DNA from: an uncultured Methanosarcinales archaeon | Lineage (GTDB): Archaea; Nanobdellota; Nanobdellia; Woesearchaeales; GW2011-AR15 | Reading direction: 5' to 3' | DNA: 64,000 nt | Assembly: GCA_964428335.1 (NCBI GenBank) | Contig: CAYRXW010000003.1 | Coordinates: forward strand, 54,246 to 118,245 | In this document: positions 33,952 to 34,266 of the stretch, one piece after another | How the letters are laid out: each line of letters starts with the position of its first letter | Position numbering within the stretch: the stretch's first letter is position 1 | Notes under the pieces: model-generated | Told to the model about the DNA's origin: nothing | Databases searched by the model: none | What the model saw: the letters and a program-made list of their open reading frames with translations, nothing else | Position numbers and translations under genes: made by a program

Positions 33952-33977
33952 ACGTAGATGAATTAGTTGATAGTACT

Positions 33978-34123
33978 CTAAGGACTATCAGGACTCTAAG
34001 CCTTAATAGATATAAAAAAATCTTTATTTTCCTTAAATAGATATTAATATCTAAATTAATATATTCAAAAAGAGGAGTTATTATATTTATATATATATAA
34101 TCTATAGTCCTGATAGTCCTTAG
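33978..34123. promoter_or_regulatory. candidate replication origin: 18-bp perfect inverted repeats CTAAGGACTATCAGGACT (33978-33995 and 34106-34123) flanking an AT-rich core with (TA)6
   Basis: Read directly from the sequence. Confidence 0.45.
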
Positions 34124-34266
34124 ACTTAAACAAAATTGATGTTCTCTATTCCATATTTTTCTTAATTTAAGGGGTATAATACAGTTAGACCCCATTAGAC
34201 CCCTTGTTACTAGTTCAAAGAATTTATTGATTTTTTTATGTCCAAAAGGATTTGTATTTTTCATCT

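Follow-up and report, generated by a model that had tools for sequence, protein, structure and literature searches.

The 64-kb stretch of DNA analyzed here (the window) carries a 20.4-kb integrative element (15681-36078) that includes, in an island of lower GC content, a gene for a 524-aa MCM-like protein with an inverted repeat upstream of it. A preliminary description of the sequence had proposed that this repeat, then given as perfect 18-bp arms at 33978-33995 and 34106-34123, is a replication origin, and the comparative and structural evidence presented below supports that proposal. The 18-mer CTAAGGACTATCAGGACT at 33978-33995 has its exact reverse complement at 34106-34123, and one additional outer base pair extends the match to perfect 19-bp arms (33977-33995 and 34106-34124), or to 22 nt at 95%. 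Each arm consists of two tandem 9-bp units, CTAAGGACT and ATCAGGACT, that match at seven of nine positions in a register read directly from the sequence, while weaker units matching at six of nine positions continue the same 9-bp register on the left side at 33969-33977 and 33996-34004. The distance from arm to arm, start to start, is 129 bp. Ranking all perfect arms with a spacer of up to 400 bp revealed that this pair forms the longest perfect inverted repeat in the window, the runner-up measuring 13 bp. The repeat is real and far beyond chance, since the longest arm reached in 100 windows simulated with a first-order Markov model was 16 bp, versus the 19 bp observed, and since the motif is absent elsewhere: a search of the 64 kb for the 18-mer with up to three mismatches returned no site beyond the two arms (0.05 expected), so that the further copies of the GGACT-containing repeat that had been suggested as a check did not materialize.

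The very A+T-rich (TA)n core of about 110 bp described between the repeats was borne out, as the spacer measures 110 bp, is 85.5% A+T and contains (TA)6 at 34088-34099. Calculation of nearest-neighbour stacking energies identified 34006-34105 as the least stable 100 bp of the entire window (-94.8 versus an element mean of -117.5 with a standard deviation of 5.1, or 4.4 standard deviations from the mean), and a perfect 16-bp palindrome, TAGATATTAATATCTA, lies inside the spacer at 34038-34053. Around this structure there is a second, imperfect inverted repeat (33896-33944 and 34156-34204; 49 nt, 76% complementary) that is concentric with the inner one, the common centre of the two falling at approximately 34050. 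The MCM-like gene starts 31-53 bp downstream of the outer left arm, which may serve as an accessory site for protein binding, as the promoter or operator of this gene, or in both roles. The motif GGGGTMTAA occurs four times in the 64 kb, where 0.6 copies are expected, and all four lie within 33921-34203. Together the copies form two near-palindromes, one beyond each iteron arm at the same distance of about 40 bp, and represent a second class of candidate binding site.

While the repeat reported for 33952-34266 is thus genuine, the region is not plain intergenic DNA, as the whole structure sits within an orphan open reading frame (ORF) of 131 codons on the minus strand (Table 1). This ORF has a GAGGTGA Shine-Dalgarno sequence, its ATG is located 3 nt past the stop of a 67-aa gene, and its own stop codon overlaps the start codon of the MCM-like gene. 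The other five frames of 33869-34264, a stretch that is 73% A+T, contain 4-18 stops each, and an open frame was obtained in none of 20000 dinucleotide-preserving shuffles. The codon score of the ORF is 0.15 bit per codon, compared with 0.17-0.62 for real genes of the window and -0.11 (standard deviation 0.19) for spurious antisense ORFs. The ORF is annotated as a gene in the source genome, and no homologue of its product was found among 5.8 billion proteins. Judged by these sequence properties, the frame appears to be translated now or to have been translated recently.

Table 1. Position, strand and properties of the features discussed in the text.
Feature	Position	Strand	Details
Left iteron arm	33977..33995	+	T + CTAAGGACT + ATCAGGACT
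A+T-rich spacer, candidate DNA-unwinding element	33996..34105		110 bp, 85.5% A+T
Right iteron arm	34106..34124	-	exact reverse complement of left arm
Outer left arm	33896..33944		contains GGGGTATAA at 33921-33929 (minus strand)
Outer right arm	34156..34204		GGGGTMTAA at 34171-34179 (+), 34185-34193 (-) and 34195-34203 (-)
Orphan ORF, 131 codons	33869..34264	-	holds the whole repeat structure
AAA+ ATPase of 524 aa with C-terminal winged helix, candidate helicase-initiator	32302..33876	-	predicted MCM fold
67-aa gene	34267..34470	-	same minus-strand gene string
AbrB/MazE-like small protein of 56 aa, putative DNA-binding	34546..34716	-	weak matches to doc_partner and MazE_antitoxin
Tyrosine integrase	15766..17073	+	Phage_integrase, 2.3e-21; at other end of element from repeat
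Left junction	15674..15705		core TGCACCA 15674-15680, then element-side arm AAATATTGCTTTATGAATACTTTAT 15681-15705
Right junction	36054..36085		element-side arm ATAAAGTATTCATATCGCAATATTT 36054-36078, then core TGCACCA 36079-36085
Type I restriction-modification	23369..28425		hsdR 23369-25699, hsdM 25709-27139, hsdS 27136-28425
Lamassu-like set, directly after hsdS	28425..31946		316-aa protein 28425-29375; LmuC 29351-29974 (weak); LmuB 29937-31946 (strong)

The gene downstream of the repeat had been given as 32302-33951, encoding 549 aa. The gene is real, but 549 aa is its longest reading; the supported start is the ATG at 33876, which has a GGAGGT ribosome-binding site and yields a 524-aa product identical to one on record from an NCBI genome. 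The Walker A sequence PILSGGGKSNL noted earlier was confirmed, and all 73 aligned family members share its lysine. Besides this GGGKS motif (K80), the protein contains Q214-P215 at the sensor-1 position and an arginine-finger-like R229-R230-F; in the 73-member alignment K80 and R230 are invariant, and Q214-P215 and R229 nearly so. At the level of sequence, the spacing of Q-P and R-R-F recalls the sensor-1 N-P and the S-R-F arginine finger of MCM proteins. All ten residues that are invariant in the family are retained, and the protein is full length with no frameshifts. To better define its fold, a structural model was generated with AlphaFold2 from a 10-sequence alignment (mean pLDDT 68, pTM 0.67, medium confidence). 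Comparison of this model with the PDB using Foldseek revealed MCM proteins as all 50 top matches, and a fold comparison of the ATPase domain again placed MCM best, followed by RavA (13.7) and BchI (12.9) from the same AAA+ clade, DnaA (~10) and Orc1/Cdc6 (8.8). The predicted fold is thus that of the pre-sensor-II-insert clade of AAA+ proteins, nearest MCM, and not that of an Orc1/Cdc6-family initiator. The C-terminal part of the model, in which the winged helix spans roughly residues 400-460, resembles the winged-helix proteins TubR, MarR and STIV F93, and among predicted viral structures the top matches were phage primase/helicases and DUF3987 proteins. The N-terminal OB-fold/zinc domain of canonical MCM is absent; the approximately 70 residues that precede the P-loop are mostly helical in the model. 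Structure prediction, which had been put forward as a check on the adjacent protein, therefore points to an MCM-fold AAA+ ATPase with a C-terminal winged helix and not to a non-replicative family. No match to the protein was obtained with PADLOC or PHROGs, a Pfam scan detected no primase domain in it, and tblastn against annotated plasmids and phages returned nothing; a profile search of PDB sequences found no chain of the Rep protein of staphylococcal pathogenicity islands (SaPIs) or of SCCmec Cch, and homology to these proteins was not detected.

An exhaustive profile search for the family returned 503 cluster representatives at E ≤ 1e-3 and 320 at E ≤ 1e-30, or approximately 500 clusters at 50% identity. 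In the alignments, the 524-aa protein shares just 21-34% identity with its relatives; a scan of a genome collection yielded distant relatives only, no close relatives were found in the viral contigs searched, and those close relatives that do exist have no precomputed Pfam match. Many family members are 750-1090 aa long and have the homologous part at the C-terminus. In 50 such long members we found Prim-Pol (17), the DnaG CHC2 zinc ribbon (5), AEP-TOTE, BT4734-like_N and PriCT_1 (3 each), the primase large-subunit domain and DUF3987 (2 each), and Gins51_C (1); Pfam MCM, VirE and DUF927 were not among the matches listed for these 50 proteins (best 25 of 29 families). Gins51_C was an unexpected extra domain, as were the clamp-loader-like DNA_pol3_delta2 / AAA domains in four long members. 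In these relatives primase domains take the N-terminal position of the missing OB/zinc domain. The earlier suggestion that the adjacent gene is of a replicative kind is thereby strengthened, as the protein ends in a winged helix and many of its distant homologues have fused primase domains or a primase-like gene after them. All seven genome matches to the family are methanogens (Methanobacterium, other Methanobacteriaceae, a metagenome-assembled genome of Methanobacteriota, and Methanosarcinales). Two proteins typical of archaea and eukaryotes, deoxyhypusine synthase and a KH protein of the KRR1/Pno1 type, are encoded in the window. From these markers and the exclusively methanogenic matches we take the host to be an archaeon, probably of the Methanobacteriaceae; a reading of GGGGTATAAT as a sigma-70 -10 box was dropped for this reason.

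The relatives that could be located reside in integrative elements of methanogens, and several adjoin a tyrosine integrase. Most, although not all, of the contexts retrieved by protein look-ups share a module with the order integrase, divergent gene, small gene (approximately 55 aa; MazE/AbrB-like in those cases with a Pfam match), short ORFs and MCM-like gene, the exceptions being a locus truncated on the upstream side of the gene, another that has an additional set of genes and a third whose integrase is far downstream. In four contexts a protein of 376-384 aa with a DnaG zinc ribbon follows the MCM-like gene, and in some of these a gene for a protein of 167-171 aa comes just before that of the zinc-ribbon protein. 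The defence cargo that comes next includes BREX, type I restriction-modification, or TIR and caspase genes, an indication that methanogens harbour a family of mobile defence islands. Among the related loci (numbered with the prefix L), L001 carries BREX (BrxA/B/C), and L004 carries ThsB-TIR, a caspase and type I restriction-modification.

We scanned 16 related loci for ungapped inverted repeats with spacers of 30-200 bp. This revealed that the top inverted repeat falls within -600 to +300 of the stop codon of the MCM-like gene in 8 of the 16 loci, where approximately 10% would be expected (binomial P = 6e-5). All top repeats scoring at least 16 are located at or adjoining the MCM-like gene, and the other top matches have short arms of A+T only. 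Direct reading of the sequences showed that the arms in most relatives are tandem iterons with a 9-bp period: AGGGTGTTA three times in L023, AAGGGTTAC three times in L024, GGCAACGGA/GGCAACAGG in L009, GCATCACCG three times in L003, TGCAATACC twice in L020 and GCATTACCC/GCATTAGGC in L019. Exceptions to this period are the 8-9 bp TACCACCC units of L005 and the less regular GGGGTGCA-type units of L008. The arrays of the relatives are mirrored over a spacer of 47-118 bp, and their sequences are unrelated between elements, as expected of sites that are each cognate to their own initiator. The arms in the window share both the 9-bp period and the inverted arrangement, and L012 has an inverted AAAATGCAC array immediately ahead of its pair of AbrB-like and helicase genes, an upstream placement like that in the window. 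This recurrence of one type of array beside or within the homologous gene, mostly in its 3' coding part where no promoter is expected, argues that the repeat is not an isolated operator, the explanation that had been named as the one to be excluded. Separately, L020 contains a second pair of arrays with a 9-bp period, GGAGTTTTT and AGAGTTTTT (7213-7239 and 7278-7304), which are direct instead of inverted and lie between genes downstream of the replication module; these could be a partition or copy-control site.

Taken together, the helicase fold with its winged helix, the frequent primase fusions, the residence in integrative elements and the recurrence of element-specific inverted iteron arrays lead us to conclude that the structure at 33.90-34.20 kb is probably the vegetative replication origin of the 20.4-kb integrative element of a methanogenic archaeon, with the 524-aa protein as its cognate self-loading helicase-initiator. 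In the mechanism that we propose, the tyrosine integrase would excise the element at the TGCACCA core, as the anatomy of the junctions suggests, and the C-terminal winged helix would recognize the 9-bp iterons, of which there are two per arm in opposite directions. Two rings would then assemble head to head, one on each arm, and open the A+T-rich spacer between them before acting as helicases, while host enzymes would carry out priming and synthesis; we propose host priming because the element, unlike its relatives, encodes no primase. The outer GGGGTMTAA palindromes may serve as accessory or regulatory sites for which the AbrB-like protein is a candidate binder, and the left one would overlap the likely promoter of the helicase gene. 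Most likely the origin is embedded in DNA that is or recently was translated, as are the iterons of most relatives in the 3' part of the helicase coding sequence. Extending this interpretation to the family as a whole, we suggest more tentatively, and as a generalization that could well fail, that it is a large, unannotated family of MCM-fold helicase-initiators that defines a class of integrative, defence-carrying replicons, so far in methanogens, whose origins are inverted arrays of mostly 9-bp iterons within protein-coding DNA.

Several observations weigh against an origin served by this protein. No match to the 524-aa protein was found in Pfam, including the MCM model PF00493, or in NCBIfam at E ≤ 0.01, and a profile built from 73 sequences found no MCM chain among PDB sequences at E ≤ 10, so that the MCM fold is predicted from a model of medium confidence. 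The Walker B motif reads N156-D157, where relatives have D in 57 of 73 and E in 65 of 73, and because N-D replaces D-E here, ATP hydrolysis may be impaired. At the 3' end of the window's own MCM-like gene, where most relatives have their iterons, none were found, and the site lies 5' instead; moreover, the spacers of the relatives are no more A+T-rich than their surroundings. A second copy of the element was not found when viral contigs were searched with the protein and metagenomes with the 18-mer, the latter search giving five exact matches, all of them single arms on unrelated contigs of 39-65% GC. Lastly, the window has no homologues of the primase-like 376-aa, 167-aa, divergent and integrase genes of the relatives, and the element, lacking a primase and the module's other conserved neighbours, may be a decayed replicon.

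The main alternative to an origin is a purely regulatory structure in which the AbrB/MazE-like protein or some other regulator would bind the repeats as operators, controlling a promoter in the A+T-rich core or that of the MCM-like gene. It is kept alive by a TATA box in the spacer, where TTTATATA at 34086-34093 matches the archaeal consensus octamer exactly on the plus strand and the right arm begins 13 bp downstream, the position at which a repressor would block initiation, as well as by the AbrB/MazE-like gene that is conserved upstream of the MCM-like gene. The L012 array lies directly upstream of the small AbrB-like gene, and the GGGGTMTAA palindromes look like dimer-binding sites, one of them over the likely helicase promoter. 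However, the TATA box faces the plus strand, on which no ORF of at least 30 aa was found downstream, and no known RNA family in Rfam matches 33000-35500. The 129 bp between the arms is far for a simple operator, the arrays of eight related loci lie in the 3' part of the helicase coding sequence where there is nothing to regulate, and the spacer is the most meltable stretch of the 64 kb. On balance we consider a solely regulatory role unlikely.

Alternatively, the repeat could be the relic of an origin in what is now a fixed, non-replicating defence island, the MCM-like protein having been crippled or repurposed. Consistent with this are the N-D pair at Walker B, which is unique among the 73 members, the lack of both a primase and the 167-aa partner gene, the predominance of defence cargo (type I restriction-modification and Lamassu) in the element, and the low identity of the protein to its relatives (21-34%). 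Single Walker B changes (N-E and D-D) are nevertheless found in other members, along with E-E and E-D, and the protein keeps every invariant residue over an uninterrupted full length. That the two arms still match perfectly across 19 bp points to continuing selection or recent origin. In addition, the integrase has an open reading frame and a match to its family, and the two junctions can be recognized along with their inverted arms. We therefore regard a relic as plausible yet rather unlikely.

It is also conceivable that the 110-bp segment with its TATA box is an invertible switch that flips between 19-bp recombination sites and toggles the helicase gene, as perfect inverted repeats around a segment of about this length with a TATA box resemble phase-variable promoter switches and the flipped TATA box would face the MCM-like gene. 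No resolvase or invertase catalytic domain was detected among the proteins of the element that were scanned, the integrase being the sole recombinase; inversion would scramble the surrounding ORF, the homologous arrays of relatives are inside the helicase coding sequence, and the arms are built of iteron-like tandem 9-bp units, all of which makes a switch very improbable. A miniature inverted-repeat transposable element (MITE), whose form is that of terminal inverted repeats around a short A+T-rich segment, or a functionless chance hairpin is scarcely credible, as there is no target-site duplication beside the arms and no second copy in the window, the metagenomic matches to the 18-mer are the single arms mentioned above, the outer repeat shares its centre with the inner one, and chance is excluded by simulation.

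The arrangement that we favour, an origin next to its helicase-initiator gene, closely parallels that of SaPIs, in which the experimentally defined origin has an AT-rich centre flanked on either side by two or more iterons, oppositely oriented and next to rep, and Rep is a self-loading superfamily 3 (SF3) or MCM-like (SF6) helicase that binds the iterons through a C-terminal winged helix (PMC9371898). The window element is likewise an integrative island with two inverted 9-bp units per arm around its 110-bp, 85.5% A+T spacer, and the candidate origin lies beside a gene for a protein with a helicase fold and a winged helix, the left arm ending 101 bp upstream of the start at 33876. It differs in its archaeal rather than bacterial host and in iterons of 9 bp versus 5-6 bp in SaPIs; no similarity in sequence was detected, and no link to a helper virus is known. 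The SaPI origin, moreover, is just 3' of rep, whereas the candidate origin of the window is on the 5' side of its gene and relatives have theirs within the 3' part of the coding sequence, and SaPIs have a primase fused to Rep or encoded alongside it, while the window element has none. The best structural match of the ATPase domain and the C-terminal winged helix are shared with archaeal and eukaryotic MCM, from which the protein is set apart by the absent N-terminal OB-fold/zinc domain and by the failure of the Pfam MCM model to match. Canonical MCM is loaded by Orc1/Cdc6 and has no origin recognition of its own. Krupovic et al. (2010), as cited in PMC5862659, described the MCMs of archaeal elements as recent captures of host MCM that are recognizable by sequence; the family of the window protein, unlike those, is not.

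Other mobile elements show related designs. In the Bacillus cereus prophage protein BcMCM and in Cch of SCCmec, MCM-like AAA+ cores without the canonical N-terminal domain are fused to or paired with a primase (PMC2715239, PMC3273815, PMC7581432), and many relatives of the window protein show just this primase-polymerase plus MCM-like arrangement, although those two systems are bacterial, no relation to them was found at the sequence level and the window protein itself lacks a primase domain. The logic of combining a primase, a helicase-type ATPase and a winged helix on mobile elements has already been described (PMC5862659), and the long family members share the domain order of the pRN1 ORF904-type replicases, PrimPol-(PriCT/Zn)-ATPase-winged-helix (PMC5862659). 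Their ATPase module, however, falls outside the Pfam families listed for those replicases, and the window protein comprises the ATPase and winged helix alone. In the origin of phage lambda, iterons and an A+T-rich stretch are embedded in coding DNA of the replication module, but these iterons are direct repeats within the O gene and O is not a helicase, whereas the arrays described here are inverted and, in the window, lie within a separate orphan ORF (on lambda see also PMC7466680). Archaeal chromosomal origins have inverted origin recognition box (ORB) elements around a DNA-unwinding element beside orc1/cdc6. The window resembles them in its inverted sites around an A+T-rich element adjoining a gene for an AAA+ protein with a winged helix, and differs from them in that the locus is on a mobile element and not at the chromosomal origin; ORB-like sequence was neither sought nor seen.

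This kind of system is thus already known, and what is new is the archaeal setting and a protein family that was missed by the domain libraries and the annotated plasmids and phages that were searched. Also unusual are the location of 9-bp iterons within coding DNA and the presence of the candidate origin in an orphan ORF. Through this analysis, a family of proteins missed by current domain libraries receives a name and a function that can be tested. If the locus is indeed an origin, it would account for the ability of a 20-kb island with a type I restriction-modification and a Lamassu system to multiply after excision in a methanogenic archaeon, and it would mean that the origin design of staphylococcal islands is also used in archaea, probably by convergence. 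The 2.4-kb segment 32302-34750, which comprises the candidate origin, the helicase gene and putative small regulators, would then be a candidate minimal replicon and genetic tool for Methanobacteriales, for which, to our knowledge, few or no replicating vectors exist.

Turning to the remainder of the element, its two junctions carry the 7-bp direct repeat TGCACCA, and the arms just inside them, about 25 bp long, are mutually inverted, an arrangement that would be expected where a tyrosine recombinase has its core sites. The HKD motif of a phospholipase D (PLD)-family nuclease gene, ...MHHKVFIID..., reappears when the two flanks are joined; this gene is split within the motif, with its N-terminal part at 14911-15696 and its C-terminal part at 36078-36605. 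Defence cargo makes up most of the element (Table 1). The AbrB/MazE-like ORF has an alternative start, ATG 34746, that would lengthen the product to 66 aa, and by synteny it is equivalent to the small gene that precedes the MCM-like gene in relatives. Cumulative GC skew, which had been suggested as a test of the origin, follows gene orientation only, with turns at ~32 kb and ~35 kb, and is uninformative for a 20-kb element. A 182-aa protein encoded at 18348-18896 on the plus strand has an N-terminal resolvase-type helix-turn-helix domain (HTH_7) without a recombinase catalytic domain. Between the convergent ends of LmuB and the MCM-like gene there is a 355-bp gap (31947-32301), within which approximately 32020-32200 is less A+T-rich than a typical spacer and may be what is left of a gene, the 167-aa and primase-like genes of relatives being found at this position.

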